A DNA stretch of 64,000 nucleotides. Source: Prochlorococcus sp. AG-459-O09. Lineage in GTDB: Bacteria; Cyanobacteriota; Cyanobacteriia; PCC-6307; Cyanobiaceae. The translations under genes and the position numbers were made by a program. The first letter of the stretch is position 1; the number at the start of each line of letters is the position of its first letter. The notes below the pieces were generated by a model. That model made no database searches, was not told where the DNA came from, and was given only the letters and a program-made list of their open reading frames with translations. This document shows, piece by piece, positions 39,202-57,899 of the stretch. The stretch lies in assembly GCA_003211955.1 (NCBI GenBank), contig QCRH01000001.1, positions 10,092 through 74,091 on the forward strand. Direction: 5' to 3'.

Positions 39202-39202
39202 A

Positions 39203-40450
39203 ATGACAGATTTGAAAAAATATTTTTGGAATAAAAATGTTAAGGTTGTTCCCTATCACAATAAATATTATTTAACCAACTCTAATCCTTCTAGAAATTC
39301 ATTTATGCCAACAATGGATTTTGAATGTACTGAATTTCTATATTTATTAAGCTTATTTATGATAAAAAAAGAAAAACCTATTTCTTACGATGAATTAAAT
39401 AAATGGTATCAAAACTGCAAAAAAGAAAAATTACCTTTACCAATCTTAATTGAATATTTAAAACGTAAGAGTTTAATGATTTTGGATCAAGATTCTGGAA
39501 ATAATGCAGAGTTATTCTCAGCTTGGGATAGGAATTACTTAGTAGATGATAGGATTTTTTCTACTCCATTAAAAGAACCTACTCCTGGAATTCTTAATAT
39601 ATTTGGTGTCCCTATATGCTCTACTCCAGATTCCTTTGGATCACAGTTTTCTCCCGGTTTAATAAGATCTTTATTGGTGGAGCCATATTATTCAAAAAAT
39701 TATAATAATTGTAAAAGTGATTTTGAAGAATATAATAATCTTCAGATACCATTGGTAAGTGATTTTGGTGATATAAATGTTGAAGGTTCGCCATCTTTAA
39801 TTTGTAATAATTTAGAAAAGAATTTAAAGGAGATAATTAAGTTTAAAAATACTAAAATTATTTTTCTGGGAGGCGACCATTCTATCCTTTCAATATGTGC
39901 TAAAGCTTGTTTCAATGATCAAGAATTTAACTTAATACATTTTGATGCTCATTCTGATGCATCTTTTGTCAATGGAGATATTTTTAATCATGCTAATCCT
40001 ATTAATTACGTTTTAGAGAAATGTCCAAAATCTAGAATTTTTTCGTTTGGTTTAAGAACAGGAGCAGATTTTAGAGAAGTTGAATCAAATGCTCCAAAAC
40101 CAGAACTGACTCATAAAGATAGATTAACCCAATTTTCAATTGATGAGACAATACAATTTATTAATTCAGGATCTTTTGATGATTTATCAATTGATAAAAG
40201 CCTGCCTTGTTATCTTTCCATAGATCTTGATGTTCTTGATCCAAATAAATTCCCCTGGGTATCAACACCTCTGAGGGATGGATTATCTGTCAATGATTTT
40301 TTAAAGCTTTTAGACAAAACATGCGAATCTTTAAATCCTCGTTTTCTAGATATCGTAGAATTAAATCTCATTAAATCAAATGATATAAATAAGCTAGAAA
40401 TAGCTGATTTATTTTTAATGATTATAATTAGATTTGCGAAGCATTTTTAA
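39203..40450 (+). CDS. Arginase/agmatinase-family ureohydrolase with about 125-aa N-terminal extension
   Basis: GGDHS, HFDAHSD and SIDLDVLDP binuclear-metal motifs intact; DIVELN. Confidence 0.87.
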   Translation: MTDLKKYFWNKNVKVVPYHNKYYLTNSNPSRNSFMPTMDFECTEFLYLLSLFMIKKEKPISYDELNKWYQNCKKEKLPLPILIEYLKRKSLMILDQDSGNNAELFSAWDRNYLVDDRIFSTPLKEPTPGILNIFGVPICSTPDSFGSQFSPGLIRSLLVEPYYSKNYNNCKSDFEEYNNLQIPLVSDFGDINVEGSPSLICNNLEKNLKEIIKFKNTKIIFLGGDHSILSICAKACFNDQEFNLIHFDAHSDASFVNGDIFNHANPINYVLEKCPKSRIFSFGLRTGADFREVESNAPKPELTHKDRLTQFSIDETIQFINSGSFDDLSIDKSLPCYLSIDLDVLDPNKFPWVSTPLRDGLSVNDFLKLLDKTCESLNPRFLDIVELNLIKSNDINKLEIADLFLMIIIRFAKHF

Positions 40451-40577
40451 GTTTTAAAAATTTTCTCTAATAATATTTTTATTTATGTTTTGATATGAAA
40501 ACCTTGATTTAAGATTAGAAATTTAAAAAGACTAAATAATTAAAAGTAGTTAAAATTAGATAAAATCTTAATTTTAA

Positions 40578-42017
40578 ATGAATAAAAAAAGTATAATTTA
40601 TTCATTGTTAATTTATCTATCTTCTTTTGGTATTGCTCAATCTAGTACACTTATTAATCACGAGAAAATAATTTACTTAGAACAAGCAAAAATAAAAACA
40701 AAAGCGGAATTAGATTCTTGCGATGGGATAACACTTGTTACCTTGGACATGTTGGAAAATATAGCATTGGATCAAAATATCCCTTATAAGAATTCCCTTT
40801 TAGGTATTGATTCAGCGAGATTTAAATACTGGGAAAGCAAATTGGCTTTGATGCCACAATTTTCTTTAAGTAGTACCTACTCAAATTCTCCAATAACCTG
40901 GTCAGATAGCGAAACTATTTACAATGGTTCTGCCTCAGGTATTTCTTCTCAAGATTATTATCAAACTACATATGAATATTTCTCTTTAACTCCACAAATA
41001 TCATGGAATATTTTGAATCCCACTTATTTTTCTTCTATAAAATACTACAAAAATAATCTTAATAAAACTAAAAATATTTCTGATGATGCAAAAGACAAAC
41101 TTCTCTTTCAAATAAGATCTCTTGCAGTAAAAACAAATCAAGACTACCAGAATTATCTTGCTAATAGTGAATCATATGAATCAGCAAAATTAACTTTGAA
41201 GAATTCCAAATCTTTATTTGAAAGCGGTTTTATCTCATTAATTGATCTCCAAAGACAAAAAAACCAAGTTTTTAGATTTCAAAATCAATTGAAATCATCT
41301 CAAAATTCTTTAAATAAGTCATTGATAGATTTGAATAATTTATTTTCATCTAAAAAGAAAAATTGTTATTTCATTTCTAAAGATGCTGTTTCATCATTAA
41401 TAAGTAGAAGAAAAGATGTTGATTTTGCAAAAGAAATTATTAAACAAAAATCAATTCAAAAAAATGGAGAACTAAAATCTGTAAAAAATCAAATAAAAAT
41501 GATTAATGCAAATATTGATCAAGCGAGATTTAGCTACCTTCCACAGACTCAAATATACGTTTCATCAAATCTAACAGAATCTTACTATGACAGAACAATT
41601 TCTTCCGGTAATACATATGAATATGATTCTTATGATTCTAATTATACGGTTGGAATTACTTCAACAATTACATTTGATGCTGGTCAAAATCTAATGTCAA
41701 TTAAGTCTTTAAAAAAAGATAAGAAAATAGCAGAACAAAATTATTCAAATTTATTATCTACTCTTGAATCAAATATTTTAAAGTATCGATCTGAAATTAA
41801 CCTTCTTGAACAGCAAAATATGATTTTAAAAGAACAACTTGAATCTACAAAAAAATCAGAAAAAGATATATATAAAACATATAATCTAGATTACGCTACA
41901 ACCACAGATGTTATAGATGCTCAAAGAACCACATCCTCTGCAAAATTAGATGTAATATCAAATAAGTCGAATTATGCTATAGCTATTGCTAATTTGCTTA
42001 AATTAATTTCTGAATAA
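40578..42017 (+). CDS. TolC-family outer-membrane efflux protein
   Basis: Signal peptide, twice-repeated OEP pattern (LMPQFSL/YLPQTQI; FESGFISLIDL/YNLDYATTTDVIDAQ). Confidence 0.8.
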   Translation: MNKKSIIYSLLIYLSSFGIAQSSTLINHEKIIYLEQAKIKTKAELDSCDGITLVTLDMLENIALDQNIPYKNSLLGIDSARFKYWESKLALMPQFSLSSTYSNSPITWSDSETIYNGSASGISSQDYYQTTYEYFSLTPQISWNILNPTYFSSIKYYKNNLNKTKNISDDAKDKLLFQIRSLAVKTNQDYQNYLANSESYESAKLTLKNSKSLFESGFISLIDLQRQKNQVFRFQNQLKSSQNSLNKSLIDLNNLFSSKKKNCYFISKDAVSSLISRRKDVDFAKEIIKQKSIQKNGELKSVKNQIKMINANIDQARFSYLPQTQIYVSSNLTESYYDRTISSGNTYEYDSYDSNYTVGITSTITFDAGQNLMSIKSLKKDKKIAEQNYSNLLSTLESNILKYRSEINLLEQQNMILKEQLESTKKSEKDIYKTYNLDYATTTDVIDAQRTTSSAKLDVISNKSNYAIAIANLLKLISE

Positions 42018-42023
42018 AAAAAT

Positions 42024-43676
42024 TTGGATTTAATTCTTTCCAACGAGAAAAAATTCTTTGAATTAGCGGAATCTTTAGTTGAAGAAAATATTAAATTACA
42101 AAAATTAATAAATTTAGCAAACCATGATTTCTCTTCTCAAAGTGGTTTTGAAATTTCTAATAGTAATATTGACTTTCTTATTTGTATTGATAAATATATT
42201 TTGAAACCAGGGGATAAGATTAATGAATTCATTAATTCTTTTTCAGAATTTGTTCCTTATGAAGTTTTAGAAATTATCAAAAAAAATTATCTTTCATTTG
42301 AGCATATATGGTTTGAATTTGATCAAAAAAACAACTATTCTTTTGGTGGGTTTTTTGTGAATTTTAAAAAAACAAGAATATTAACAACTAACTATATGAA
42401 TTTGAGAGAGTTTTTGAATATTACAAATATTGGTAATGTTGAAAACTATTTATTGCAGATTAAAAATTTTCTAAATTTAATAGATACTTATAACTTTGAT
42501 TTAAATGAAATTGGTTACATGCCTGGTAGGTCCGGGAATCCAATTAGGCTTTGTCTTTTTAGTAATAATAATGATTTTTCAATTATTCAAAAAATAATTA
42601 AGAAGACTTTCGATGAAGAATTAACTCTTAATCAAGAGTTGTTAAGTTTAAGGATTGAACATTTCAGTATTGATATTGATCTTTTTCCGAATAAATTTAT
42701 ATTGAATGGAATTGAAGTTTTCCCATTAGAAACAAAACTAAAAAAAATTAATAATTTTTGTAGGAAAAAAAATATTAATTTAAAAAATCTTGATTCTATA
42801 TTATCTCCAAAGGCTATCCAAATATCATCTTTTATTAGTGACCAAAATCAAATATATTCCATTCTTAAAAGATCAGTAAGTCACTTTAAGGTTACTTACA
42901 AAAATAAGTTAAATAATTTAAAAATTTATATTTCAATGGATAAAAATCTGATAAAAAAATCAACTCTTACTCAAACTAAAAAAATTAATAAAAGTGTTAA
43001 TCAACAAAAATTAAAAGTTAAAGATTGGAATATTTTTTTTAAACCATCAAATTTTGATGGTTTTAATTATTCAATTAAACTTCATCAAAAAAGACTTATA
43101 AAAATAAATTCGCAAGAAAATATAACATCTGTAGTGAAAAATAAGCTATGGATAATTGATAATTTTTTAGAGCAGGAAATTTTAGATAATGCATATTATT
43201 CTGTTTTACGTTCAAAATCTTGGTCTTTTTCTAATAGAGGTACAGAAAAACAAATATATCCTTCTTGGTGGATTACTAATAAATTTCCTGATGAAGTTAA
43301 AAATATTTCTAAGTTATTAATAAATAAATTTTTAAATGTATCTAGAGATATTCCTACTACAAGGTTGATAGTAAATGGCCATACCTCTGGGTTCTCTGAT
43401 CAAACTCATAATGATTATTCTTTTCAAAATCAAGGTTTAACTTTTCTTCTTTTTTTAAATCCAAATTGGGAAATAGAACATGATGGTGACTTCAAATTTT
43501 ATCCTTATGAGGATAAATATTGTTATTCATTCTCACCAATTCAAGGGAGGCTTATAATTTTTGATGGCTCATTTCCACATAGAGCATCATCAGTGTCAAG
43601 AGACTTTATGTCACTTAGGCTTTCTATTGCTCTTCAATATTCTTCAATATATAACATTGATAAAATAATAACTTAA
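42024..43676 (+). CDS. Fusion: unknown N-terminal domain (possible ABBA prenyltransferase-like fold) plus C-terminal 2OG-Fe(II) oxygenase
   Basis: C-term THND...LTFLLFLNPNW...GRLIIFDGSFPHRA...RLSIA; N-term WFEFD, IGYMPGR..PIRL, IDID..GIE, SHFKV..LKIY. Confidence 0.75.
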   Translation: MDLILSNEKKFFELAESLVEENIKLQKLINLANHDFSSQSGFEISNSNIDFLICIDKYILKPGDKINEFINSFSEFVPYEVLEIIKKNYLSFEHIWFEFDQKNNYSFGGFFVNFKKTRILTTNYMNLREFLNITNIGNVENYLLQIKNFLNLIDTYNFDLNEIGYMPGRSGNPIRLCLFSNNNDFSIIQKIIKKTFDEELTLNQELLSLRIEHFSIDIDLFPNKFILNGIEVFPLETKLKKINNFCRKKNINLKNLDSILSPKAIQISSFISDQNQIYSILKRSVSHFKVTYKNKLNNLKIYISMDKNLIKKSTLTQTKKINKSVNQQKLKVKDWNIFFKPSNFDGFNYSIKLHQKRLIKINSQENITSVVKNKLWIIDNFLEQEILDNAYYSVLRSKSWSFSNRGTEKQIYPSWWITNKFPDEVKNISKLLINKFLNVSRDIPTTRLIVNGHTSGFSDQTHNDYSFQNQGLTFLLFLNPNWEIEHDGDFKFYPYEDKYCYSFSPIQGRLIIFDGSFPHRASSVSRDFMSLRLSIALQYSSIYNIDKIIT

Positions 43677-43787: not shown

Positions 43788-44147
43788 ATGGCTATAGATG
43801 AGAGCTTAATAAGAATAATCACTTTAAGTCCACTTATACTATTAATAATTATTGGTTGTTATGGCCTATTGACTGCAAAAAATATTTTTAATTCTTTATT
43901 TTCTTTAGATGTAATTGATACTGCGACGATAAGCACATTTGTTCTAATTGCTTCATTTCCTGGTACTCAGACTCCAATTGTAGGTTATGAAAGGTATTCC
44001 GAATATGCTGATCCTTATCCTCAGGCAATTATTTTAACAGCAATAGTTATTGGTTTTGCAACACAAGCATTGCTCTCGGGGATCGCATTAAGACTAAGCC
44101 GCAAATATCCATTATTGAGATTTAAAGATTTAGAAAATGATAAGTAA
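43788..44147 (+). CDS. mrpC: Multisubunit Na+/H+ antiporter subunit C
   Basis: ADPYPQAIILTAIVIGFA. Confidence 0.9.
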   Translation: MAIDESLIRIITLSPLILLIIIGCYGLLTAKNIFNSLFSLDVIDTATISTFVLIASFPGTQTPIVGYERYSEYADPYPQAIILTAIVIGFATQALLSGIALRLSRKYPLLRFKDLENDK

Positions 44148-45672
44148 TCCAGTAATCTTAACTTCTCTCATTTTTCTTCCAGTAATATTGGGTTTTATGG
44201 GGTGCTTGTATCCTAAATTACTCTACAAGATTAGTTTTGGCACAATTTTTTTATACGCATTAACCAGTTTATATGGATATATTGGAAATTTTGAATATTC
44301 TTTTAAACTTATCAATTCTGAAGGAATTCCACTATCTTTTGATAGCTATAGTTTGCCATTGATTTTTGGAACAGCAGTAGTTTTACTTACTACTTTTCTT
44401 ATTAAAAAGACATTATTTAGCCATTATTTTTACCAGATTTGTTTGGTTTTATTTAGTGCATTGTCTATTAGTTTTTTATCAAAAGATCTAATTTCTCTAT
44501 ATATAGCACTTGAATTAACAGGTTTTTGTGCGTTCCTTTTAATTGCAGATAGAAACGATTCTAAATCTCTATTTAATGCATTCCAATACTTAATTGGTGG
44601 AGGACTGGCTATGCTTATTTATCTTTTTGGAGTTATTCAGGCCTTTACATATACTGGAACATTTCTATTAGATGAATTAGTAAATGCCCCACCCACAGCT
44701 TTATGTCTAATATCAGCAGGCCTTTTAACAAAAGCAGGTATATTTCTTTGTGGTGTCTGGGTTCCTAATGTCTATAGTTATTCCAATTCCCAATCTGCTT
44801 CTATATTATCTGGCTGTGTAACTTGCGCGGCTATTGCACCATTAACAAGAATGAGTACTGTACTAGCCCCAATTAGTAATTCTCTAATAATCATAGGCAT
44901 TTTAAGTTCAGTTTTTGGAGCAATTTTTGCTCTATTAGAAGAAGATAATGGTAGAACTTTAGGGTGGAGTTCTGTTTCTCAATTAGGAATAGCTATTCTC
45001 TCGCCAACTTATGGTTGTTTGTACGCAATGCAGCATGGAATATGTAAGTCTATATTATTTATTACATTAAGAAAGAATAAGGAAAATACAAATATATATA
45101 AATTAGATCCTGATGTAGATCAGGATCAATTAGAAATTAATTCTGCAGATATTGAAGAAATTATATCGATTGTTGCATTTATAATTGCTGGTCTCTCAAT
45201 TTCTGGTTTTCCTTTCCTCTCTGGTTACATAACAAAAGCATTAGTAAAAAGTGATTTACCAAAAGAAGCACTTCTAATTTTTAATAGCAGTGCACTATTA
45301 ACATCTGTTGTTTATATGAAATTAATTATAAATAGAGTAAATAATTTGAAGATTAAATTTATTTTTAATAAATTAAGTAAATCTTTTCAAGAAATATTCT
45401 TTGAAATTTTTAATGCAAAAAATACTACTTTAACTTTAGCTTCCCTATCAATTTTTTTCTTTTCATTTTTCCAAGTAAAATATTTTTCAATCGAAAAAGT
45501 TCAGAATTCCATTATCACGATTATATTGGGGTTAATTTTTTATATTTCATTTATGGGATTTAAATCAAATAATGAAGTCACTACCTACAGAAAAACAATA
45601 GATATTATTGGAGCACCTTTTGTTATTGCAGCATTATTATTAGCGAACTTAACTTACTTAAAAATATTATGA
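44137..45672 (+). CDS. mrpD: Multisubunit Na+/H+ antiporter subunit D
   Basis: DLISLYIALEL, KAG...WVP, WSSVSQLG, HGICKS, GFPFLSGYITK. Confidence 0.85.
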   Translation: MISNPVILTSLIFLPVILGFMGCLYPKLLYKISFGTIFLYALTSLYGYIGNFEYSFKLINSEGIPLSFDSYSLPLIFGTAVVLLTTFLIKKTLFSHYFYQICLVLFSALSISFLSKDLISLYIALELTGFCAFLLIADRNDSKSLFNAFQYLIGGGLAMLIYLFGVIQAFTYTGTFLLDELVNAPPTALCLISAGLLTKAGIFLCGVWVPNVYSYSNSQSASILSGCVTCAAIAPLTRMSTVLAPISNSLIIIGILSSVFGAIFALLEEDNGRTLGWSSVSQLGIAILSPTYGCLYAMQHGICKSILFITLRKNKENTNIYKLDPDVDQDQLEINSADIEEIISIVAFIIAGLSISGFPFLSGYITKALVKSDLPKEALLIFNSSALLTSVVYMKLIINRVNNLKIKFIFNKLSKSFQEIFFEIFNAKNTTLTLASLSIFFFSFFQVKYFSIEKVQNSIITIILGLIFYISFMGFKSNNEVTTYRKTIDIIGAPFVIAALLLANLTYLKIL

Positions 45673-46079
45673 ACGCTACAATTTTTATAAGATATTTGTC
45701 TCAAATCTTTTTTAGATTAATAATATGGTGTTTATTAACTTCAAATTTTAAACTTAATAATATAATCATTGGAATATTTTTTTCAACTATTTTACCTAAG
45801 GTACGTTTACCCTCAATAAAAATAAGGTTTATTTTTATTGAGTTAATAAAAACTATTGCTGCTTTCCCTAGTGCAGTAAAAGAATCGATATTGTTAATTT
45901 TAATGAAAAAGAGAACTGAAACTTTTGTTTATAAAAAATCATCTGTAGCCGAAGATGGAAGCCAATTTGTAAATTTCCTAGATTTATTTAGGATAACTTT
46001 GACTCCTCTTACTTTGGTTACTAAGAGAGAAGATAATAACAATTGGCGTGTTCATGTTATTGAAGAGGGAAAACGATGA
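45669..46079 (+). CDS. mrpE: Na+/H+ antiporter subunit E
   Basis: IWCLLT..., ITLTP.T, VHVI. Confidence 0.8.
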   Translation: MNATIFIRYLSQIFFRLIIWCLLTSNFKLNNIIIGIFFSTILPKVRLPSIKIRFIFIELIKTIAAFPSAVKESILLILMKKRTETFVYKKSSVAEDGSQFVNFLDLFRITLTPLTLVTKREDNNNWRVHVIEEGKR

Positions 46080-46390
46080 TCTCTATGACCTATATGTTTC
46101 TATTTTCTAATATTTTAAATTTTAGTAAAAATCAAAATATTGATTTGATAATAATTTATCTAATGATGTTTTCATCATTAATTCCAATTTTTGCAGTAGC
46201 AAAACAAAAAAAGATTATTCATAGACTTGCATCTGCCTCTAGCTTTTCTTTGAAATTATCATTAATAATAATTTTTTATTCATTTGCAATAAACGACTGG
46301 ATGATTGGTTCTATTGGAGCATTTACGCTAATTGTTGGAGATGCAGGATTAATAGTCCTTTCTTTACTTTATAAAGAGGATCTCTCATAA
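46076..46390 (+). CDS. mrpF: Na+/H+ antiporter subunit F-like
   Basis: 3-TM protein between mrpE and mrpG with overlapping or abutting ends. Confidence 0.65.
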   Translation: MISMTYMFLFSNILNFSKNQNIDLIIIYLMMFSSLIPIFAVAKQKKIIHRLASASSFSLKLSLIIIFYSFAINDWMIGSIGAFTLIVGDAGLIVLSLLYKEDLS

Positions 46391-46391
46391 A

Positions 46392-46655
46392 ATGATGTTC
46401 ATTTCTTACTTACTTTTATTTATAGGATTATTTTTTTGGATTTGGGGTACTCTACCAATTCTAAATAAGAGAAATACCATCTTATATAAATTACATACTT
46501 TAACTGTATCTGATACTGTTGGTTCAGCACTGATTTTAATTGCCTTGATAATTCGGAATTCTACTCACTGGCCAGTTTTGTTTATTTGTTTAATCACATT
46601 GACACTTTGGAATACAATCTTTGGATATTTGCTCGGAAATCTAACTGAAAAATAA
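46392..46655 (+). CDS. mrpG: Na+/H+ antiporter subunit G
   Basis: YKLHTLTVSDTVG. Confidence 0.8.
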   Translation: MMFISYLLLFIGLFFWIWGTLPILNKRNTILYKLHTLTVSDTVGSALILIALIIRNSTHWPVLFICLITLTLWNTIFGYLLGNLTEK

Positions 46656-47179
46656 TGGATAAAATAACTTTATCAAGCTTAATACCTTTTGAATTAATCT
46701 TGCCATTTCTAGGTATCTTACTTATTAGATCCAAATCTCCAACTCAAGCTCTTATATATAGATCTTTTTTAGGTTCAATAGCTGCTTTAATTTATTCATT
46801 GGTAGGAGCTCCAGATGTTGCATTAACTGAAGTTCTAGTTGGTACTTTACTCTCAACTTTAATTTATATTGTTTCAATAAGGGGATGTTATTCTTTAGTC
46901 ATCCTCATAAAAAAAGAGGAAAGTATTAATGATCTTGTTTTTAAAGAATTAAAAGAAGCTTTTGCCGAGCTCAATTTTCATGTAGTTTTCGAAAAAGTCG
47001 ATGAAATAGCATTAGATAGCAAAGGGAAAATCCTTTGGGATGAAGCTATTTTATTTAGTGGTTCTCCTCATGCAGCAATTATAGATAATAAATTAATCGT
47101 TGAGTCAAGTATTCTTCGAGATGAATTGTCTAATTCTAAATCCTTGCAAAATACAAATCTTGTTTTTTCTGAAAAATGA
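46655..47179 (+). CDS. DUF4040/MbhD-like antiporter subunit
   Basis: GAPDVALTEVLVG. Confidence 0.82.
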   Translation: MDKITLSSLIPFELILPFLGILLIRSKSPTQALIYRSFLGSIAALIYSLVGAPDVALTEVLVGTLLSTLIYIVSIRGCYSLVILIKKEESINDLVFKELKEAFAELNFHVVFEKVDEIALDSKGKILWDEAILFSGSPHAAIIDNKLIVESSILRDELSNSKSLQNTNLVFSEK

Positions 47180-47886
47180 ACATTAAATTAAAAAAACAAA
47201 CTCTTGGTGAGAAATTAAAATCATTTTTATATCTTGCATCGATTTCGATTGTTATGATAACTTTTTTATTTACTAAAAGTGGATCATATATACGTGATAC
47301 TGAATTTCTTGTCTCAAATTTAGCCTATATTACTGATATACCAAATACAGTAACCTCTGTAATTTTAGGGACCAGACTTTTTGACACTATTGGCGAGGTT
47401 ACAGTATTCACATTGGCAGGATTAGGGGTAAAAATATTACTAAATGATGAAAAAAGTGAAAAAGAATTTACTGGAATAAAGGATAAAACTATTATTCAAT
47501 TGTTAGATTTATCTGCATTACTTTGCGCATTTTTAGCAATTGAGCTTGCGATTAGAGGTCATTTAACTCCTGGTGGAGGATTCGCATCTGGAGTTTCAGG
47601 TGCTACTGCAATTACTTTATTAATGATAACTGGCAGGATACAAAATTTAGAGGAATTTTATTTTAAATATAAAGCTATTTCAATAGAAAAATTTGCAGTT
47701 GTTGCCTTCATAATTGTTTCAATATTAAGCTTTAACAGTATTCTTAATCCATCTTTTTTAAGTTTGAAATTACCCCAGAATCTTTTAATTCCTGCTCTCA
47801 ATATAATATGTGCTTTGAAAGTAACTTTCGGGACTTGGTCAATAATTAGATTATTTGTTCTAAAAAGAGGTTTACTAAGTAAATGA
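47176..47886 (+). CDS. mrpB: Na+/H+ antiporter subunit B (MnhB domain)
   Basis: PNTVTSVI..RLFDTIGEV, GHLTPGGGFASG. Confidence 0.88.
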   Translation: MNIKLKKQTLGEKLKSFLYLASISIVMITFLFTKSGSYIRDTEFLVSNLAYITDIPNTVTSVILGTRLFDTIGEVTVFTLAGLGVKILLNDEKSEKEFTGIKDKTIIQLLDLSALLCAFLAIELAIRGHLTPGGGFASGVSGATAITLLMITGRIQNLEEFYFKYKAISIEKFAVVAFIIVSILSFNSILNPSFLSLKLPQNLLIPALNIICALKVTFGTWSIIRLFVLKRGLLSK

Positions 47887-48629
47887 TTAAAACCAAGTCT
47901 AATAATTGGTATTTTGGAGATTATTTAGGAAGTTATCAAGGTTCTAGTTACAACAATCTTATCTATTTCGTAAGTGTTTTATTTTTTTTAACTGTTGCTA
48001 TGGAAACAGAAAATTCTATTTCCGAGGAATTTGAAATAACTATTGATTTTGTGTATGAATTAGTGCAGGCATTTTTTTTGTCAGATTACTTTGGCAAATT
48101 AGCCAATAGTTGGTCTAAAAAAGATTATGTAATTAAAGAACTTTTTTTATCATTTCTTAATTTAAGAAGTTTATTTGATATTTTTACTTTAATAATTTTA
48201 ATATCAGATAAAATACCAAATCAAAGTCCTATTATCCTTGGGGCTTATTTTTTAAAAATTTCATTAAATATTTATCAAACTGAATTAAGATCAATTTTTA
48301 ATAGACTTAAATTTATTATTTTTGATAAACCATCTTATACTTTTTACCCAATAATTCTATTGTCAGTTTTAACTTATGTTTTTGCTTCATTTATGTATTT
48401 GGTTGAGAGGAATTCAGATCAGTCACACTTTGGATCAATTATAAGAGCGTTATGGTTTTCAGTAGTTAGTATCACTACAGTTGGTTATGGAGACATAACA
48501 CCTTCAACTGCACTAGGAAAAGTCATAGCAACATTATTCGCATTTATAGGAATTGTTACCATAGCGCTATTGACCACAAATATAATTGAGGCTAATTCCA
48601 ATTATGATAAGAGCATTGATAAATCTTAA
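47883..48629 (+). CDS. Potassium channel
   Basis: ALWFSVVSITTVGYGDITP selectivity filter. Confidence 0.9.
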   Translation: MIKTKSNNWYFGDYLGSYQGSSYNNLIYFVSVLFFLTVAMETENSISEEFEITIDFVYELVQAFFLSDYFGKLANSWSKKDYVIKELFLSFLNLRSLFDIFTLIILISDKIPNQSPIILGAYFLKISLNIYQTELRSIFNRLKFIIFDKPSYTFYPIILLSVLTYVFASFMYLVERNSDQSHFGSIIRALWFSVVSITTVGYGDITPSTALGKVIATLFAFIGIVTIALLTTNIIEANSNYDKSIDKS

Positions 48630-48732
48630 TTGCATTATGTTGTTGAATTAATACAATAAAATAAGTTAGTTTCATTTATCTATTGTGGTTGGTATCTTTT
48701 GTATAAAAGTAAAAGATGATTTCCCCATCAAG

Positions 48733-49596
48733 ATGAAAAATATAATTAAAACTATATCAATTGCTGCTCTTGCACTTCTCGTTTTTTTCCCTTATACAAA
48801 AGCTAACGCAGTAGAAATTGATTACATCAATAAAATTAAAGAGAGGGGTTCTTTAATCGTTGGAATGCCTCCAAAAAATAATCCTCCCTATTATTTTAAA
48901 GATTCACCTCCTTCAGTAGAGGACTCAGATGCAATGAAGGGAAATGATGTAGATCTCATGAGGAAATTTGCTGAAAATCTTGGCGTAGATGTGATTTTTG
49001 ATCAATCTTCAGCGAGTTTTAATGATACTGTAAGAAGGGCGGGTAAGGGCGATTTTGATGTCGCAATCGGTAAATTGAGTGTCAACTATCCAAGAATGTC
49101 AAATGCTCATCCTCATGTTTATATGAACTTTAGACAAGCATTACTAATCAATAGATCATTTTTATCAAATTTTGCTAATGAAACTCCTGATAACCTTGGG
49201 AAAGTATTACTTGATTCAAATATTAAAGTAGGATTTATTTCTAATTCTTCTTATGAAACCTCTGCTTATGAACTCATGAAAAATGCAGTAAAGAAAGGAT
49301 ATTCATCATGGGAAGAATGCAAAAAAGCTTTAATTAAAGGGGATGTTGATGCTCTTTATAGAGACACTACTGAAATAAAAAAGATAATGTATCAACAACC
49401 CAACTTATCAATAAAATATGTCCCAATTCTTTTTGATGATGTAAAAGACTTAATATCTATTTATTTATCTACTGAAGCAAATATAGCAATGGCAGATATG
49501 CTTAATTATTATTTAAGTCAAGAAGAGGAAATTAAAACTGATACCCAAGTTTTAGATGAGTTTTCAGATTTCTACAAACCATTGATTTCTAAATAA
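48733..49596 (+). CDS. Periplasmic amino-acid-binding protein (SBP family 3)
   Basis: Signal peptide from ATG 48733; IKERGSLIVG..PPYY..G.DVDL...GDFDVAI. Confidence 0.82.
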   Translation: MKNIIKTISIAALALLVFFPYTKANAVEIDYINKIKERGSLIVGMPPKNNPPYYFKDSPPSVEDSDAMKGNDVDLMRKFAENLGVDVIFDQSSASFNDTVRRAGKGDFDVAIGKLSVNYPRMSNAHPHVYMNFRQALLINRSFLSNFANETPDNLGKVLLDSNIKVGFISNSSYETSAYELMKNAVKKGYSSWEECKKALIKGDVDALYRDTTEIKKIMYQQPNLSIKYVPILFDDVKDLISIYLSTEANIAMADMLNYYLSQEEEIKTDTQVLDEFSDFYKPLISK

Positions 49597-49607
49597 CAAT
49601 TTTTAAA

Positions 49608-50876
49608 ATGACATACTCTTCAATAAAAGAAATACTAACTTCTTTAAGAAAACCAAAACTATTTTTGCTTGTCATAATGCCAATTTCTATTTTAATTGGT
49701 AGGTTTATCCCTTCTTTATCTGAGCCTTTAAATGATTTGGGATTAACTTTAATCCAGTTAATATCCTTCCCTGCAATTCCATTAGTTTTGTCTGCAGTTG
49801 TACTTTCAATTTCAGAAATTTTTGATTCTGAAAAAAATAATTTTCGCTTTTCAAGAACTTTGGGAATAACAATCTTAATTTTTATATTTGGATTTTCATT
49901 CTTGGCAATTATTCTCTCCCTTTATTCTAAACCAGGGTTTTTGTCTCCAGATGGCAAGTTATCTATTGGAAGATTTATGCTTGATGTGACTGATATAAAT
50001 ATAAACGTCTTTTCAAAAAATGTTGTTGAAAATATAAATGAAACTAACTTTTTTAAATCCTTAATACCCTCAAATATTCTTTCTGATGCAGCCTCAGGCC
50101 AAACCCTCAAAGTAATTACCGGTTCAATTTTAGGTGGATTAGGATTGGCGGCACTTCCTAAAGAAAATTCAAAGCCAATGATCATTTTTTTGAGAAGTCT
50201 GAATCAATTATCTGTAAAAGTTTTAGATGAACTTCTCTTAATATCTCCATTAATTCTAATATGTTTAATAGCTGGAGCTATGTCATCGGTAAGTACTGAA
50301 ATTATTGTGGCCTTACTAAACTTGGCGATTTGTATCCTTTTAGCAACAGTAGCATCATTAGGAGTTTCGAAATTAGTATTGCGTAAATTTACAAGTTCAA
50401 AAGAAAGGGAAAAATTTATTACCAATCCAGCTGACTCAGTATTTCTTCTAGCTCTTGCAACAGGAAGCAGTATGGCATGTTACCCAACAATAATAAATTC
50501 ATTAAAAACTATTGGTAGATCACAAAATAAAATAGAAGCTTCAGCATCATTAAGCCTTTTAATTGCCAGAGTAGGGAATATTGTTTACAACGTTATTGTA
50601 ATTATTTTTGCTTTGAATCTATATGAAGTTAACTTAAATCCATTTGTTCTTATACAGGTTTTAACTTTTGGAGTATTTACGGGAATTTCAGCAGCTGGGT
50701 TAAATGGTATTGCTGTTCTTCCAAGTATTGGAGTAGCTCTTACTTTTTTTGGAGTTCCACTTCCTCCAATTTTGCTTCTATTAATTGCTGTTGATCCTAT
50801 TCTTACATTGGCTAGATCAGCTATTACAAGTGTAACCTCTTTAGCTATTACAACAGTTTCTACTAAGGGTGCTTGA
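49608..50876 (+). CDS. Dicarboxylate/amino acid:cation symporter (DAACS/GltP family)
   Basis: LIPSNI, LALATGSSMACYP, SAAG, AVDPIL..ARS. Confidence 0.8.
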   Translation: MTYSSIKEILTSLRKPKLFLLVIMPISILIGRFIPSLSEPLNDLGLTLIQLISFPAIPLVLSAVVLSISEIFDSEKNNFRFSRTLGITILIFIFGFSFLAIILSLYSKPGFLSPDGKLSIGRFMLDVTDININVFSKNVVENINETNFFKSLIPSNILSDAASGQTLKVITGSILGGLGLAALPKENSKPMIIFLRSLNQLSVKVLDELLLISPLILICLIAGAMSSVSTEIIVALLNLAICILLATVASLGVSKLVLRKFTSSKEREKFITNPADSVFLLALATGSSMACYPTIINSLKTIGRSQNKIEASASLSLLIARVGNIVYNVIVIIFALNLYEVNLNPFVLIQVLTFGVFTGISAAGLNGIAVLPSIGVALTFFGVPLPPILLLLIAVDPILTLARSAITSVTSLAITTVSTKGA

Positions 50877-51164: not shown

Positions 51165-53300
51165 TTAGTTAATTAGATCTTGATTAAAAGTAGTAGTAGG
51201 GAAAGGTATCCTTATTTTATTTTCTTCTAATTTAGTTATTATTAATTTGTTTAACCTATCATAACTTGTTAGAAAGTTTGAATAAGTTTTTAATTCTCCT
51301 ATTACGCAAACTACGAAATCATAACTAAAAGAATTTATTTCACCAAACTTACATGAATCAAAATTTAAATCATCAATTTGTTCAACAATAGTTTTGATTA
51401 TTTTTGGTATCTCCTCAAGTTGGGAAGGCTTTGTGTCATATGAAATCCTAACAATGAATCTTGATAAATATATTTGTCCTATGATTTCATTCACCTTAAC
51501 AGTTAGATGATCCCTTATTTCAAGAAACTGTTTCCACTCTTTATTTTCAATAAGTGCAAAAATAAGTAGATTTGTTTTATCGCCCTCTTTTTCAAGAGTA
51601 ACTATCGGATAAAAAAATTTTTTATTGTTATTCTCCAAATATTCTTTACAAAATCTAATTAATTCACTTTGCTGCCATGGACTTAAAGGCTCTTTTAATT
51701 CTATTTCTAGTTTTATACATTGTTTAATTAATTCATTTTTAACAGTACTATAGTTAATAACATTAGTACTCTCTGCAGCCGAATTAGGGATTGTTACACA
51801 ACCTTCAATAGTCTCAATATCTATCGATCTTAATCCTACCCTCTTGACATATCCAACAATATCATCAACCTTACAAAAATTACCTACGCTTAAATGCTGG
51901 TCAGCTTGCATAACTAAACCGGAAATTATGTTCCCAAGTAATTTCGATGATCCTAAACCAATAGCAAGGCCAGGAACCGCTGAAAGGGCTAGTATCGCAT
52001 TTGTAGGAACTCCTATAGAAATAAGAAGAAAATATAGTAACAATAATATAATTGCAGTAGATATAAATCTTGTTATTGGTTTAATAAAAGTTTTTACCCT
52101 AAGAGATGCAATATAGTTATTGGCTGAATATCTTTTAGATTTTTCCTCAGTCATCATACATATATAATTAGATAAAGATTCAAAAAAGAATATTACAAAA
52201 ATTGATAAGCTCGTAAAATAAAGTATTTCAAATGAAAAAGTAAAAGCAATTAAAGGGTCTCCTGTAAAGTTCAAAAATTTATCAATAAATAATTCTGAGA
52301 ATTTTGTAAGAGGAATTAAAATAAAGCAAATAAATGTTTTATCCCAATTTGCTTTAGTTGATAAATTACTTTCTCTCAATTTCTTTAATACTTTTGCAGA
52401 TAAAAACAAATAAATTATTGATAAAATAAATGCGAAAGATATTTGGAATATCGTTTGGCGACCTATAATTTCAATCTCAAAAAAATCATGAATATTATCT
52501 GGTAAAGAAGCGTACCATTTTGGCGGAACTAAAAGTCCTGGAGTATGAACAAAATCTAAGTAAAAATTTGGAGTTACATATTTTGAGCTCTGGAGAGATT
52601 CAGCTAATTTTTCAATTTTCCTAAAACCATATCTTATATTTTTAACCGTGTAGTCAGAAAAATAATATTGACCATTAACGAAACCATCATCCCCATTAGA
52701 CCTTTTAAGAGATATTTTAGTATTAGGTAATTTCCATTCTTTTCTCTCATAATCTGGAAGAGATTTTATATCTTGATAATCTGGAATATGTATTTCTTGC
52801 TTAGAAGAAATGAAAACATAATCTAGTATATGTTTTAATTCCACAGCTGCTTCATCTGATAAATGTTGCCTTACACTTTTAGCGAAAGAAGAACCATCTA
52901 ATGTTTTGGAAGCTTTGAAAAAGAAAATTTCCCCTTTTTTTATCTTCTCTTTTGTTTTTTTATCCCAAAAAAATCCAGCTTTTTTGCTTTGATCATTATA
53001 TATCTCGTTCTCAATGTCGCCTGCTAAAGCCATTAGCGAATAAAAATTCAAAATAGTTTGCTTTGGACTTTTTCCAGTGGCAGAAGCTATTGGATTTATT
53101 ATCCATTTATCGTATGTCTTTTCTAAATCTTTATAAAATGGTTGTGACTCAATACCTATTCCATAAGGGAATAGGATCTCAGTAGAGGATTCAGTAGGTA
53201 ATTTTTTAACAACTAATTCAGAAGAAAATAAATGACCAAAATTTAAGTTTATAAAAAAAAGGGTTATAAGAAATATGATGGAAAATTTTATTTTTCTCAT
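51165..53300 (-). CDS. Large MscS-family mechanosensitive channel with periplasmic N-terminal domain
   Basis: GLAIGLGS, GYVKRVGLRS, TIPNS, IPFPT. Confidence 0.85.
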   Translation of the reverse strand: MRKIKFSIIFLITLFFINLNFGHLFSSELVVKKLPTESSTEILFPYGIGIESQPFYKDLEKTYDKWIINPIASATGKSPKQTILNFYSLMALAGDIENEIYNDQSKKAGFFWDKKTKEKIKKGEIFFFKASKTLDGSSFAKSVRQHLSDEAAVELKHILDYVFISSKQEIHIPDYQDIKSLPDYERKEWKLPNTKISLKRSNGDDGFVNGQYYFSDYTVKNIRYGFRKIEKLAESLQSSKYVTPNFYLDFVHTPGLLVPPKWYASLPDNIHDFFEIEIIGRQTIFQISFAFILSIIYLFLSAKVLKKLRESNLSTKANWDKTFICFILIPLTKFSELFIDKFLNFTGDPLIAFTFSFEILYFTSLSIFVIFFFESLSNYICMMTEEKSKRYSANNYIASLRVKTFIKPITRFISTAIILLLLYFLLISIGVPTNAILALSAVPGLAIGLGSSKLLGNIISGLVMQADQHLSVGNFCKVDDIVGYVKRVGLRSIDIETIEGCVTIPNSAAESTNVINYSTVKNELIKQCIKLEIELKEPLSPWQQSELIRFCKEYLENNNKKFFYPIVTLEKEGDKTNLLIFALIENKEWKQFLEIRDHLTVKVNEIIGQIYLSRFIVRISYDTKPSQLEEIPKIIKTIVEQIDDLNFDSCKFGEINSFSYDFVVCVIGELKTYSNFLTSYDRLNKLIITKLEENKIRIPFPTTTFNQDLIN

Positions 53301-53860
53301 TCTATTTTCTTTATATTTACTGTTAACTTAAAGATTCAGAAAAAATAAATCAACCAATTGATGAATTTTATTAACAACCTATTTATTTTTAATAATAAAT
53401 TTTATTTGATATTTTTGCGCAAATAATGGTATTTATTTAACTCTAGATACTTAAAAAATATTGATTTACTTATTTAAATAATTAGAGAAATAGAAAAAAG
53501 GTGGTCAGTAAGTACTCACTTTAATTTTGGATGTCAACTCTATCATCCATAAACTTTTGGCACTATAGATTAAAATCTAATGTTTTCTGTGGACTATAAG
53601 GAGCGCACTCGGTCGGTTGATGGCATAATCAAAAACTTGGTTAAAAGACTTTAGAAAGACAATAAAAGTTTTTATAGGATCAGTCTGGGTAGTAGAAAGG
53701 GAAATAGTATTAGTCCTCCAATTAAAAACGTATTTGAACAATGGCAAATTCATTGTTGATGAAATACCTTTTAAACTATTTAGCCTTTTTTAGTTTTTAA
53801 GATATACAAAATTCAAAATTCAAGAGATGTGAGTAGTAAGATTATAAAATTAGGATTTTT

Positions 53861-54151
53861 TTAAAATATAGATATTGATCTAGATCCACCATGCCCTTTG
53901 TTCCTTGGAATATCAGTACCAAAAATACCATCTAAAAATCCACCAGCAACTTTTTCTAGTTCTTCATCTGACATTTCATTAATGAGTGAGTCTAAGTGAG
54001 CTTGTCCAGCTTCAATATGCTCTTTATCAAACTCATGACCATGATCTTTTGCTATTGCAACAATATCTGCCCCCTCAGAATTTATTTTTTCAAGGATTGC
54101 TGGATCTTTTAATGCTTTTTCTGCGAAAGCCTTCGCTTGTTTAACTGACAT
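53861..54151 (-). CDS. Nif11-like leader RiPP precursor A2 (core FLDGIFGTDIPRNKGHGGSRSISIF)
   Basis: Leader 50/71 identical to A1; EMSDEELEKVAGG. Confidence 0.9.
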   Translation of the reverse strand: MSVKQAKAFAEKALKDPAILEKINSEGADIVAIAKDHGHEFDKEHIEAGQAHLDSLINEMSDEELEKVAGGFLDGIFGTDIPRNKGHGGSRSISIF

Positions 54152-54313
54152 TTAGTGAAGTTAAAAGGTGTATAGAGATAATAGTAAAAAAAATATATAA
54201 TGACAATTTCCTTAAATTAAAGTACCAGTCTCTTTAAAAAGCCGAATCAATTGAATGTAAAATTTTTGTAAAATTTTAAGACATATTTTTTATTAGAGAG
54301 CTTTAATGAATAT

Positions 54314-55159
54314 ATGAAATCTTCCGCTTTAAATCAATATTACAAGATTAACTTAAATCCTCAAACTTCTATAGCTTTCTCAGAAAAGGGATTTAGAGAA
54401 ATAAATTTAAACTCAGAATTAAACTTTAATTATTTAGATTTTATAGACAACGATTTATTTATTGGTAATAAAGTTCTTCTTGTTAAAAATCTTCTTAATG
54501 CTTCTATTCTTTTAGGTATAAAGAAATGGCATTTATTTGATGTTGAGTCAAGTAATGATGATTTAGTACCTGGAATTGATCCTGAAAAAAATAAGGATTA
54601 TCAAAATTATTGTTGGGGACTTTTATCTTCTTTTATTACTACAGGCGCAACACCATTAGTTGCAGAATACTTATATGAGAAATTTCTTGCCGATGGTTCT
54701 GATCTTATCGCAAATCATTACAAAGAAATTAAGATTGAAGAAGGGCCTCATCAAAAACTTTGTAAACTTGATTTAAAAGAGTTAGGAGTAGATTATCAAA
54801 AAATTTTTTCACTTTATACTTTTGAAAAAGAAGACTCTTTAGTTAAATATTTTTGGAAATTAGCTAAATCAAAAGAGCCTCTCTCGACTCTTGGATATGC
54901 ATATGCTTTAGAAAAAACAGCTTTAATCTTTAATACACCCAAAAAAATAATTGCAACAAAAGATCTTTTAGGATCAAAAGATAGTGCCATAAGGTGCTTG
55001 ATGGCTCATTCATCAAATAGTCATGAAAAAGAACATGTCGAAGACTCTTTACGTCTAATTTCAACTTTAAGTATTAGATCAATTACTGAAATTGCCAAAG
55101 CGACATTAGAAACTAGTTCAAAAATGCATAATCCTTTTCTTAGAATAAAGAAACTATAA
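54314..55159 (+). CDS. Heme-oxygenase-like diiron oxidase/oxygenase (HDO, CADD/PqqC-like fold)
   Basis: EEGPH..LCKLDLKELG, LGYAYALEK, AHS..HEKEHVE helical carboxylate/His metal-ligand pattern. Confidence 0.7.
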   Translation: MKSSALNQYYKINLNPQTSIAFSEKGFREINLNSELNFNYLDFIDNDLFIGNKVLLVKNLLNASILLGIKKWHLFDVESSNDDLVPGIDPEKNKDYQNYCWGLLSSFITTGATPLVAEYLYEKFLADGSDLIANHYKEIKIEEGPHQKLCKLDLKELGVDYQKIFSLYTFEKEDSLVKYFWKLAKSKEPLSTLGYAYALEKTALIFNTPKKIIATKDLLGSKDSAIRCLMAHSSNSHEKEHVEDSLRLISTLSIRSITEIAKATLETSSKMHNPFLRIKKL

Positions 55160-55283
55160 AAAATCATTAAAAAAATATTTTCCAATATATTTGTTTTTTA
55201 ATATACCTCCTTTAATAATCTTCTTGCTTTTGGGTTTGTTTAAGTATTAAAAATATGAAATTAGTAAGCGTTTCATTTGATTA

Positions 55284-55901
55284 TTAGATGTTATCTGTTT
55301 GAGAATCTTTATATTCAGAACTACATGCATCTATATTTAAAAACTCATAATTTAAAGAGACATATCCCTCTTCTGTACTAGTAGCGAATGTTCTTACTGA
55401 TATATTTTTAATATTTTTTTGAGGAAGATTTGAGCCAACGTCATTAGTCCAATAAGCTTCAAGGTATCTTTCTTCTTTTAATAATCCCATCATCCAATAT
55501 TGTGAATCATTCCAGATACTGTTTCTTTTAACAAAATCATATTTTTTATTAGTACCATATTTTTTTGTTAAAGCTTTTTCAAAAAATTCAAATTCGTTTA
55601 TTAGTTGATCTCCAAAGGAATTTGAATACAAAATATCCGTATGGCTTATTATCCTACAAAGTCCTGATTTTGGAGTAATTAATAAATCATATTTAGTTAA
55701 TTTGGAGTTACCTTTTGGAAGCTCCTCTGTCGTATACCAATAATTTCCATCATCTTTGAGAGAAACACCTTTATTAGATATATCTTTCTTTGTCTCACCC
55801 ATATTTAAACCAAATTGGCTAGATAATAAATATTGAGGAAAAACAAAAATAGAAATTATTATTGTTAGAAAAAATTTCAATTTAAAAGGAGCTAATCGCA
55901 C
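55284..55901 (-). CDS. Hypothetical secreted/periplasmic protein
   Basis: Signal-peptide-like N-terminus, FGLNMG motif; GTG start lies inside the 32-bp motif and is uncertain. Confidence 0.65.
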   Translation of the reverse strand: MRLAPFKLKFFLTIIISIFVFPQYLLSSQFGLNMGETKKDISNKGVSLKDDGNYWYTTEELPKGNSKLTKYDLLITPKSGLCRIISHTDILYSNSFGDQLINEFEFFEKALTKKYGTNKKYDFVKRNSIWNDSQYWMMGLLKEERYLEAYWTNDVGSNLPQKNIKNISVRTFATSTEEGYVSLNYEFLNIDACSSEYKDSQTDNI

Positions 55902-55923
55902 TTTATTGTAGATCGATTGTCAA
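55892..55923 (-). repeat. Conserved 32-bp cargo-end motif, copy 2
   Basis: Reverse complement TTGACAATCGATCTACAATAAAGTGCGATTAG. Confidence 0.8.
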
Positions 55924-55947
55924 AAATTTAAATACTCTATTCTGATT

Positions 55948-56163
55948 TGACCGCTTATGACCGTTTTAAATATTATGACCGAAATATGACCGTTTTTTCT
56001 CCAATATACGGTAACTGAGTGGAATTCTAAGGAACTAATCTATTTTCAAGAAAATAAAAAAACTCCTAAAAGGAGTTGTACCTTGAAAAGTTAGTTGTGG
56101 ATTACGGAGGGGGTGGGATTCGAACCCACGGTGCCCTTGCAGACACGCTAGTTTTCAAGACTA
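55948..56163 (-). repeat. att-like direct repeat: four TATGACCG arm-type sites, terminator hairpin and tRNA-Ser 3' 59 nt (partner 57360-57580)
   Basis: Collinear with 57360-57580; tRNA fragment 56105-56163 identical to the functional gene; AACTCCT-aaa-AGGAGTT hairpin. Confidence 0.9.
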
Positions 56164-56287
56164 TAAGATATTAAGTGATACCAGTTTATTAGATAGCATC
56201 TAAGGAACAAATATGACCGAAATATACCCGTTTTTTAAAGAGATTAATTTAATGAATATCTTCAGGATTTTATAAGTCTTAAGCGTT

Positions 56288-56860
56288 TCATTCATTAAAT
56301 GCATTCTTAACTAAATTTTCTATTCCATAAATTTCTTTAAATTTATTATTCCATATGTTTCTTTTTGTTTTGCGATTACCATCAACTAGTCCCATAAACT
56401 TTCTTATCTCTTTTGAAGTTGGTGGCATAGGTCTTGAATCACATGAATTAGATGTATACAAAAATGGTTCTTTATCTGGGCAGTTAGGATCTGAAATAGC
56501 TTTTGTTATTTCAGTTAATTTGTAATAGGTATGCCAAACAGGTTTACTTACATGACCAGCAGTATATAAGCCAACACCATCAACAGTTAAAAAATCACTC
56601 GCAGTACTTTTTTCAATACTTCTACAATTACCTGCACCAATATAAACATAACCACTAGGGCAACTATTTCCTGTTAACTCTGTTTTACCCTGAATCATTC
56701 TTAAGCTTGGTATATCAGTTGATTTGATTGTCATAGCTTTCACGCAACCAAGATAATCTTTGGCATCTTTACAGCGATTATGAATTTTATTCGATATCTC
56801 AGCATTAACAGCAGTAGGTAAAGCGAGTGCAGCTAGTAGTGGGAGTAGTATGCGTTTCAT
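56288..56860 (-). CDS. Cys-rich hypothetical secreted protein
   Basis: Signal peptide MKRILLPLLAALALPTAVNA; 6 Cys. Confidence 0.7.
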   Translation of the reverse strand: MKRILLPLLAALALPTAVNAEISNKIHNRCKDAKDYLGCVKAMTIKSTDIPSLRMIQGKTELTGNSCPSGYVYIGAGNCRSIEKSTASDFLTVDGVGLYTAGHVSKPVWHTYYKLTEITKAISDPNCPDKEPFLYTSNSCDSRPMPPTSKEIRKFMGLVDGNRKTKRNIWNNKFKEIYGIENLVKNAFNE

Positions 56861-57148: not shown

Positions 57149-57294
57149 TTATAAATTTGTTCTTGATTACCAAAGTCACTAAATATATTTTTGGAATCAG
57201 AATTTTTAATAATCACATCAGGTTCTTTATTATCATCTAACCAAGGCACTCCTCCTTTAAGAATAATAAATAATCTTCGAAAAAATTCTTTCAC
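57145..57294 (-). CDS. Small hypothetical protein (49 aa)
   Basis: Manual translation MKEFFRRLFIILKGGVPWLDDNKEPDV...; GTG start, stop overlaps the next ATG (ATGA). Confidence 0.5.
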   Translation of the reverse strand: MKEFFRRLFIILKGGVPWLDDNKEPDVIIKNSDSKNIFSDFGNQEQIYK

Positions 57295-57304
57295 AAAAAA
57301 ATAG

Positions 57305-57336
57305 CTAATTGCCTCTTATTTTAGTGCGACTGTCAA
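57305..57336 (-). repeat. Conserved 32-bp cargo-end motif, copy 3
   Basis: Reverse complement TTGACAGTCGCACTAAAATAAGAGGCAATTAG. Confidence 0.8.
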
Positions 57337-57521
57337 TTATTTTATGTCCTCTAGTTTACTATGACCGCTTATGCCCGTTTTTAAATTTATGACCGAAATA
57401 TACCCGATTTTTTCCTCATTATTCGGTAACTGAGGGGAACTCTAAGGAACTAATCTAAATTCAAAGAACATAAAAAAAACTCCTAAAAGAAGCCGTACCT
57501 TGAAAAGTCAGTTGTGGAGTA

Positions 57522-57608
57522 CGGAGGGGGTGGGATTCGAACCCACGGTGCCCTTGCAGACACGCTAGTTTTCAAGACTAGAGCCTTAAACCACTCGACC
57601 ACCCCTCC
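57522..57608 (-). tRNA. trnS: tRNA-Ser(TGA)
   Basis: 87 nt GGAGGGGTGGTCGAGTGGTTTAAGGCTCTAGTC-TTGAAA-ACTAG...GGGTTCGAATCCCACCCCCTCCG with long variable arm. Confidence 0.97.
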
Positions 57609-57899
57609 AAGGTTAAATATTTAGCTTTAACTTTTGAATTATAGCAGTATTGAGTTGCACAAAGGTTTTCTAATTTGGTAGATATTTAAAAATAAAAATA
57701 TGATTTTTGATTTATTTTTTCTTGAAGTGTTTAAATAGGTCTTTTTATAGAAAAATGGTCTCTTTATGGTCTCCTTATTTTATTTGAATTAAGCTTTGCT
57801 CTAATTGCAGTTGATCCCTAAAGGTTATACCCATTACTTTAGATAGAACATCAATTACTAACTTTTAAGGATGCTATAAGTAAACGTTTCATTTTTAAC

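Follow-up and report, generated by a model that had tools for sequence, protein, structure and literature searches.

The right end of a genomic island in Prochlorococcus sp. AG-459-O09, where a gene for a small peptide precursor (A2) lies beside a gene for a 281-aa protein resembling heme-oxygenase-like diiron enzymes (HDOs), raises the question of what this enzyme oxidizes and whether its peptide neighbor is a substrate. The window (the whole stretch of 64,000 nucleotides that was analyzed) has a GC content of 23-37% and belongs to a host genome assembly of 1.23 Mb that is 74.6% complete, the complete genomes of the genus being 1.6-1.7 Mb. The island is bracketed by two partial tRNA-Ser copies (Table 1) and contains a second precursor of the same A-type (A1), two B-type precursors (B1, B2), an NHLM-type exporter, tailoring-type genes (JmjC, FAD-oxidase, arginase and 2OG enzymes) and an Mrp/transport block, with A2 and the HDO gene at its right end. 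A sequence-only reading of this DNA had taken A2 and the HDO gene to be a stand-alone module about 10 kb from the main operon, in which a leader-dependent HDO modifies a peptide that leaves the cell through the island's exporter. Its description of the arrangement was accurate: the two genes are divergent and 162 bp apart, and the main operon's final tailoring gene stops at 43676, at a distance of 10.2 kb.

Table 1. Features of the locus, with positions in the window unless another contig is named
Feature	Position	Strand	Remarks
Partial tRNA-Ser copy	26241-26300		Island left end
A1, second A-type Nif11 precursor	26796-27113	+	Core ends Phe-Gly
B1 and B2 precursors, main operon	29506-30503	+	Share up to 12/13 leader-end residues with A2
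NHLM-type exporter: HlyD, C39-peptidase ABC transporter, second ABC subunit	30655-36844	+	C39 protein at 31908-34058; PF03412, TIGR03794/03796/03797
TolC-family outer membrane channel of exporter	40578-42017	+	PF02321
A2, Nif11-type precursor, 96 aa	53861-54151	-	71-aa leader ending VAGG, 25-aa core
A2 core peptide	53864-53938	-	Cys-free, terminal Phe
Decayed remnant of tolC 3' end	54254-54311	+	Resembles tolC preceding the L085 ortholog
HDO, 281 aa	54314-55159	+	Six predicted ligands; HO-like fold model
Partial tRNA-Ser copy	56104-56163		Island right end
Full tRNA-Ser	57521-57609		Beside island right end
A3, third A-type precursor (locus L089)	Genome contig C13:22791-23030	-	8-residue core ending Cys-Phe

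The 281-aa protein is an HDO by its modeled fold and predicted ligands, which would bind the metal. Its AlphaFold model (pLDDT 92.2) aligns with Sden_3740 (PDB 3dde; Z 18.6, rmsd 3.5 over 210 residues), CADD (Z 17.4, rmsd 2.9 over 197 residues) and HrmI (Z 17.0). Compared with the 3-His 3-carboxylate HDOs CADD, UndA and HrmI and with Sden_3740, it has the same ligand set at a fold Z of 15-19 and 12-14% sequence identity, but the substrates known for CADD, UndA and HrmI differ, being a Tyr of the protein itself, fatty acids or free amino acids. A Foldseek search of the PDB with the model gave no match at E ≤ 0.001, its top rows being TenA/CADD. An unfiltered sequence search found 116 representatives at E ≤ 0.001, mostly with 22-35% identity, and among the 95 proteins aligned the predicted ligands E143, H146, E200, H232, E238 (as Asp or Glu) and H241 are conserved in 95, 91, 91, 92, 91 and 92, respectively. 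The ligand pattern given by the sequence-only reading holds for EExxH (residues 142-146) and YALE (197-200) but not literally for its third motif, H..HExEH: the protein has H232-x4-H237-E238-K-E240-H241, of which H232, E238 and H241 are conserved whereas H237 (6/95) and E240 (16/95) are not. The family profile matches 3dde (E 1e-14) and, as the best characterized match, MboA (E 1.3e-3); PF14518 (Haem_oxygenas_2) matches 68 of the 95 aligned members. A Pfam search with the 281-aa protein alone found no match, and the CADD model TIGR04305 matches it weakly (E 0.004; 16.9 bits, under the curated cut-off of 200). A three-strand N-terminal extension (residues 10-30) precedes the HO fold in the model, which shows no complete RRE (no separate RRE helix set, and no PqqD profile match). 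A predicted complex of the HDO with A2 scored 0.02 and was weighed neither way.

A2 is a Nif11-leader RiPP precursor: it exceeds the cut-offs of both PF07862 (E 8e-11, 42.5 bits; cut-off 23.8) and TIGR03798 (66.1 bits; cut-off 32.3), its leader ends in double Gly, and the core that follows VAGG (residues 68-71), FLDGIFGTDIPRNKGHGGSRSISIF, lacks Cys, as had been noted from the sequence. The structure model has a helical leader and a disordered core. The host genome encodes three A-type precursors (A1, A2 and A3); the leader of A3 is 86% identical to that of A2, and its gene is remote from any enzyme. The leader end of A2 is the same as those of B1/B2 at 12 of 13 residues, and the terminal motif EKVAGG, common to A2, A3 and B1/B2, occurs in just three of the 56 A-type leaders, which fits adaptation to the island's C39 exporter. 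A2 has the GG leader expected of an NHLM exporter substrate, and the genome encodes an ABC exporter with a C39 peptidase (PF03412, E 7.5e-29; TIGR03796, 599 bits, under the equivalog cut-off of 853). Export of A2 in trans through this exporter appears plausible from the leader motifs. The main operon (B1/B2) is a RiPP system separate from that of the A-type precursors and the HDO. Spanning 29506-43676 of the window, it encodes a JmjC protein, an FAD-binding oxidase, an arginase and a 550-aa protein in which a 2OG domain accompanies an unassigned N-terminal part, and its precursors have two Cys each and end in RRW.

Close relatives of the HDO form only four clusters (64-89% identity). A search of 284 further genomes from the genus detected neither the HDO nor the A-type leader; five weak matches to the HDO in the genus were rejected as noise (residues 17-88 only, with stops). 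No relative of the HDO was found in viral contigs or GenBank phages. The 89% identical ortholog (locus L085) starts 5 nt after tolC within an HlyD-C39 ABC-ABC-TolC operon, so the adjacency of A2 and the HDO gene is not conserved. DNA identity between the window and L085 begins 60 nt upstream of the HDO start codon, inside the end of tolC, and the decayed tolC remnant has a local score of 61, compared to 32 or less for 2986 random 58-mers from the window. The HDO is 89% identical to the L085 copy, but other genes shared by the two islands are only 33-69% identical, including exporters that are 47-60% identical. Because of the tolC remnant and these unequal identities, the HDO gene seems to have been moved recently from an operon resembling that of L085 and does not look like part of an ancient unit with A2. 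The pair is not a conserved stand-alone module, and its enzyme gene was apparently transplanted with a fragment of tolC. The same Mrp block lies downstream of the L085 ortholog; in both islands this block of Mrp antiporter, ion channel, binding protein and symporter genes (43788-50876 of the window; L085:12341-19402) comes after the peptide exporter, with approximately 68-70% identity.

Such a history invites the interpretation that the HDO gene of the window is a passenger stranded from another island with its scrap of tolC, lying beside A2 by chance and weakly expressed or decaying, so that A2 is exported unmodified. The remnant and the disparity of identities fit this interpretation, as do two changes found only in the window copy near H232, T226I and K230M, both at sites invariant in 13 relatives of the clade, and a promoter scan in which 10 promoter-like matches were found where 11.4 are expected by chance. 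Nevertheless it is distinctly unlikely, for the frame is intact, all ligands are kept, dN/dS relative to the 89% ortholog is 0.30, a sign of constraint, and three A-type precursors have been retained in the genome. Accelerated evolution of the window copy was considered and rejected, the excess of changes on its branch (15 versus 9, p 0.31) not being significant. Even a stranded passenger leaves the link of the enzyme family to peptides unchanged.

That link can be followed among the close orthologs. A search with A2 found at least 49 A-type precursors among the matches listed. Three of these are on contig(s) of 23,176 bp, the exact size of the contig of the L085 ortholog (one has the same assembly label), and four are on contig(s) of 13,957 bp, the exact size of the contig of a 66% identical ortholog; judging by the matching sizes, these two ortholog contigs would carry three and four A-type precursors, all seven of which end in Phe. 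The sizes of two other ortholog contigs (11,508 and 7,846 bp) are shared with no listed precursor. Within 20.8 kb of L085 there is neither an A-type nor a B-type precursor, and the downstream precursor typical of the wider family is absent both there and at the HDO gene of the window. The close clade is approximately 25% identical to the distant loci whose neighborhoods were examined, and a quick tree of 43 rows, which left out 20 of the 39 picked loci and in which rows L047 and L073 have suspect long branches, put it on a long, loosely placed branch.

The distant loci were obtained by one motif scan of species genomes that identified 119 relatives, of which the best 80 in the P0012 ranking correspond to 78 loci. 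For these best 80 of 119 relatives, a precursor-like gene is close to the HDO gene in 72 of the 78 loci. This count is not a statistical test, since a single motif served to select the loci and they are related to one another, which biases the set. The 72 comprise 22 loci with an NHLP, 44 with a short acidic peptide, five with a third peptide type assigned by eye, and L082, with a 47-aa peptide ending in Phe, also by eye; of the other six, three lack downstream DNA and three lack a precursor. The NHLP loci among the best 80 of 119 are mostly from myxobacteria and acidobacteria, with the NHLP directly downstream of the HDO in 17 and about 5 kb upstream in five; these partners have DPGF-like ends, with Phe as the last residue in 22 of 22, and five of six that were tested pass the cut-off of TIGR03793. 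The 44 short-peptide loci (likewise among the best 80 of 119) are cyanobacterial, and their peptides belong to no NCBIfam family; four have longer ORFs (150-174 aa), several have tandem copies, and 42 of 46 tails end in a hydrophobic or aromatic residue. A true double-glycine/Nif11 leader is within 8 kb in none of the 78 loci, and the sole double-glycine match in a scan of these loci and L085 was discarded as a spurious shadow frame. The sequence-only reading had staked its proposal on the linkage of homologs to precursors, expected to be of the Nif11 type. Linkage was found, in the distant loci with NHLPs or orphan short leaders instead of Nif11 and, as the contig sizes suggest, in the close orthologs with A-type precursors. 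The HDO subfamily thus looks peptide-linked. In other samples, a phylum set yielded HDOs in 3 of 400 genomes, with a short peptide downstream in two, and a family set yielded one weak, distant HDO in 400 genomes (E 2.4e-9), with no precursor seen.

Since its relatives are almost always beside precursor genes, the enzyme likely alters a peptide, and it is quite probable that the HDO acts on a ribosomal one. A small-molecule HDO similar to UndA, BesC or AetD, using a free amino acid or fatty acid and merely sharing islands with peptide genes, would agree with the fact that fatty or amino acids are the substrates of most of the approximately one dozen characterized HDOs (PMC13108848), and the L085 ortholog has on its flanks several 2OG oxygenases to which no role is assigned. 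It is very unlikely in view of the 72 of 78 loci (best 80 of 119 relatives) that adjoin precursor-like genes of three unrelated types, the tandem peptide copies enclosed by a pair of HDO genes that face each other (L018, L019), and the neighbor clusters listed, among which there is no recurring ligase or carrier gene.

The part of the peptide that is acted upon may be indicated by the A-type cores. From 106 sequences, 59 distinct cores were obtained, of which 41 end in Phe, 14 in Leu and four in other residues; for comparison, Phe ends 5.5% of 824 ORFs of the genome. The cores constitute 19 groups, 16 of them with a member ending in Phe, and are rich in Lys and Gly with a mean net charge of +4 (grouping and charge on 42 cores); Cys is present in seven of the 59. 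The end residue is their sole conserved feature, and A1, with Gly after its Phe, departs from the prevailing terminal Phe. A carboxylate is the common anchor of HDO substrates at Fe1, and MboA (mangotoxin acetylenase; PDB 9YPI) holds its peptide substrate by the C-terminal carboxylate at Fe1 (PMC13185094). The ligands of MboA (E86, H89, E143 and the pair H172..H181) have the same spacing as E143, H146, E200 and H232..H241 here (E-x2-H, 57 residues from E to E, nine from H to H), but the alpha-3 carboxylate of the present protein is at H+6 rather than H+4. MboA, with its partner MboB, desaturates the terminal Arg of a tripeptide made by a ligase (PMC13185094), whereas the candidate substrates here are ribosomally made, carry a leader and end in Phe or Leu, and no redox partner was seen. 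Terminal Phe or Leu across three unrelated precursor types is what binding of the carboxylate at Fe1 would select, which favors oxidation of the last residue; on balance, by neighborhood and by analogy with MboA, the HDO would oxidize the terminal residue of A-type precursors.

The predicted pathway begins with the A-type Nif11 precursors of the host (A2, A3), which the HDO would modify, probably at the C-terminal Phe, by the Fe/O2 chemistry of other HDOs. The gene neighborhood points to the ribosomal peptide as the substrate, and its terminal carboxylate would bind Fe1 as in MboA. The product, a guess between known HDO reactions, would most likely arise by decarboxylation to an enamide (styrylamide, -46 Da) or by desaturation of the residue (-2 Da); decarboxylation specifically is put forward tentatively and is somewhat doubtful. 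Cleavage after GG and export through HlyD/ABC/TolC by the C39 exporter would follow. The C-terminal styrylamines of plant cyclopeptide alkaloids, made by a 2OG enzyme (10.64898/2026.01.20.700549), are a precedent for the product type from another fold, and a C-terminal nitrile is made by a different enzyme (10.64898/2026.03.11.711119).

Modification at an internal site, such as desaturation of Arg or Lys in the manner of VarO, or of B1/B2, with the terminal Phe maintained because a target or the exporter requires it, is an unlikely alternative to oxidation of the last residue. It draws on VarO, an HO-like protein needed for Arg desaturation in thiovarsolins (PMC6511847). The A-type cores are rich in Lys and Arg (mean net charge +4), and the NHLP and short-peptide partners keep an Asp near the end in addition to the last residue. 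A terminal Phe is also the outer-membrane beta-signal that darobactin mimics; however, position -3 is Ser, Thr, Pro, Ala or His in 44 of the 59 cores, unlike the beta-signal pattern. Across the 19 core groups no internal residue is conserved, the 8-residue core of A3 has neither Arg nor Lys, and the absence of a B-type precursor within 20.8 kb of L085 argues against B1/B2 as substrates.

Known systems resemble parts of this one. VarO is an HO-like protein of a RiPP cluster, but it is an accessory enzyme in a YcaO-TfuA cluster, for which PMC6511847 gives genetic evidence only and leaves the timing on the precursor unclear; the HDO of the present family is often the sole enzyme beside the precursor. 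No match to YcaO/TfuA, the context of VarO, was found among 29 window proteins scanned. According to a 2026 review, roughly a dozen HDOs have been validated, with VarO as the one ribosomal-peptide case in the part covered here (PMC13108848). The hydroxylase MppG/MppE is a non-heme iron enzyme with leader-dependent activity on a Nif11 precursor, but it depends on 2OG and has an RRE (10.64898/2026.10.04.756588), while the HDO has only its three-strand extension. LynB7 was rejected as a precedent, as it is not an HDO (PMC10127204). Prochlorosins (ProcA/ProcM) share the conserved Nif11 leader, the hypervariable cores, the scattered precursor genes and the marine picocyanobacterial hosts (PMC10783134), but the A-type cores are cationic, Phe-ended and nearly free of the Cys needed for lanthionine rings, that of A2 having none. 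The LanM profile PF13575 has no match in the host genome, which is 74.6% complete and in which the control is also silent. Within Prochlorococcus, prochlorosins are reported only from clade LLIV (PMC10783134), and the word "oxygenase" is absent from the main text of that survey of picocyanobacterial RiPPs. HDO terms have no match in PMC12703449 or PMC11002830.

No description of the HDO subfamily was found in the literature searched, outside of which are most subscription papers and supplements (including the list of putative HDOs of the MboA paper, in which members may occur), and this precursor-linked subfamily is apparently undescribed. Among the HDOs characterized in the literature examined, none is shown acting on a leader-bearing ribosomal precursor. 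The subfamily brings gene-encoded candidate substrates in several phyla, and can thus be tested directly by two-gene co-expression; an enzyme that edits the C-termini of peptides while tolerating varied sequences would add a new reaction to RiPP chemistry and could be a useful tool. The A-type precursors are a second, Cys-free hypervariable Nif11 peptide system beside prochlorosins in the most abundant lineage of marine phototrophs. A bolder possibility, to be held only tentatively, is an undescribed RiPP class with the HDO as its core enzyme. The HDO would grip the C-terminal carboxylate and oxidatively decarboxylate the terminal residue, leaving an enamide (styrylamide) as the cap, and would have changed partners among unrelated leaders of three types, namely NHLP (myxobacteria and acidobacteria), short orphan leaders (cyanobacteria) and Nif11 (a streamlined marine lineage). 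If so, wild low-GC Prochlorococcus would possess, without ProcM, a combinatorial library of cationic peptides ending in Phe that is missing from 284 species genomes.

Several minor observations were made. Marine metagenome proteins (P0139-P0245) constitute a large wild A-type Nif11 family with cationic variable cores, several per contig. The sequencing runs with words common to the locus are marine, and no RNA run is among those listed. In seven of these runs no contig bridging A2 and the HDO gene is listed, a gap that proves nothing; short seawater contigs link 53261 to 56314, omitting both genes, on weak sides of merely 19-21 nt, and others switch to different DNA near 54237-54239, also weakly. 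A 316-nt repeat (82% identical) containing the 3' part of tRNA-Ser is present at 55854-56163 and 57265-57580 of the window. The distant 300-aa HDO-like gene (L087:1033-1935) comes from one complete genome outside the genus but within the family, belongs to a different subfamily, and precedes a small protein that we take to be SCP2-like. The short peptides of the cyanobacterial loci (L013-L081) are 45-70 aa, acidic, 3' of the HDO and often in tandem, with six copies between the facing HDO genes of L018/L019 (e.g. L018:9208-11074), and a WD40 protein of approximately 1,180 aa is near 35 of the short-peptide loci (best 80 of 119 relatives), which hints at a signaling peptide and its receptor. The HDO-NHLP clusters (L007-L012, L017, L024, L033, L044, L046-L049, L051, L054, L057, L065, L071, L073, L074, L083) recurrently include a Trp-halogenase (PF04820), an S53-type peptidase and an anthranilate-phosphoribosyltransferase-like PF00591 protein, to which L071 adds a Lant_dehydr_N protein.
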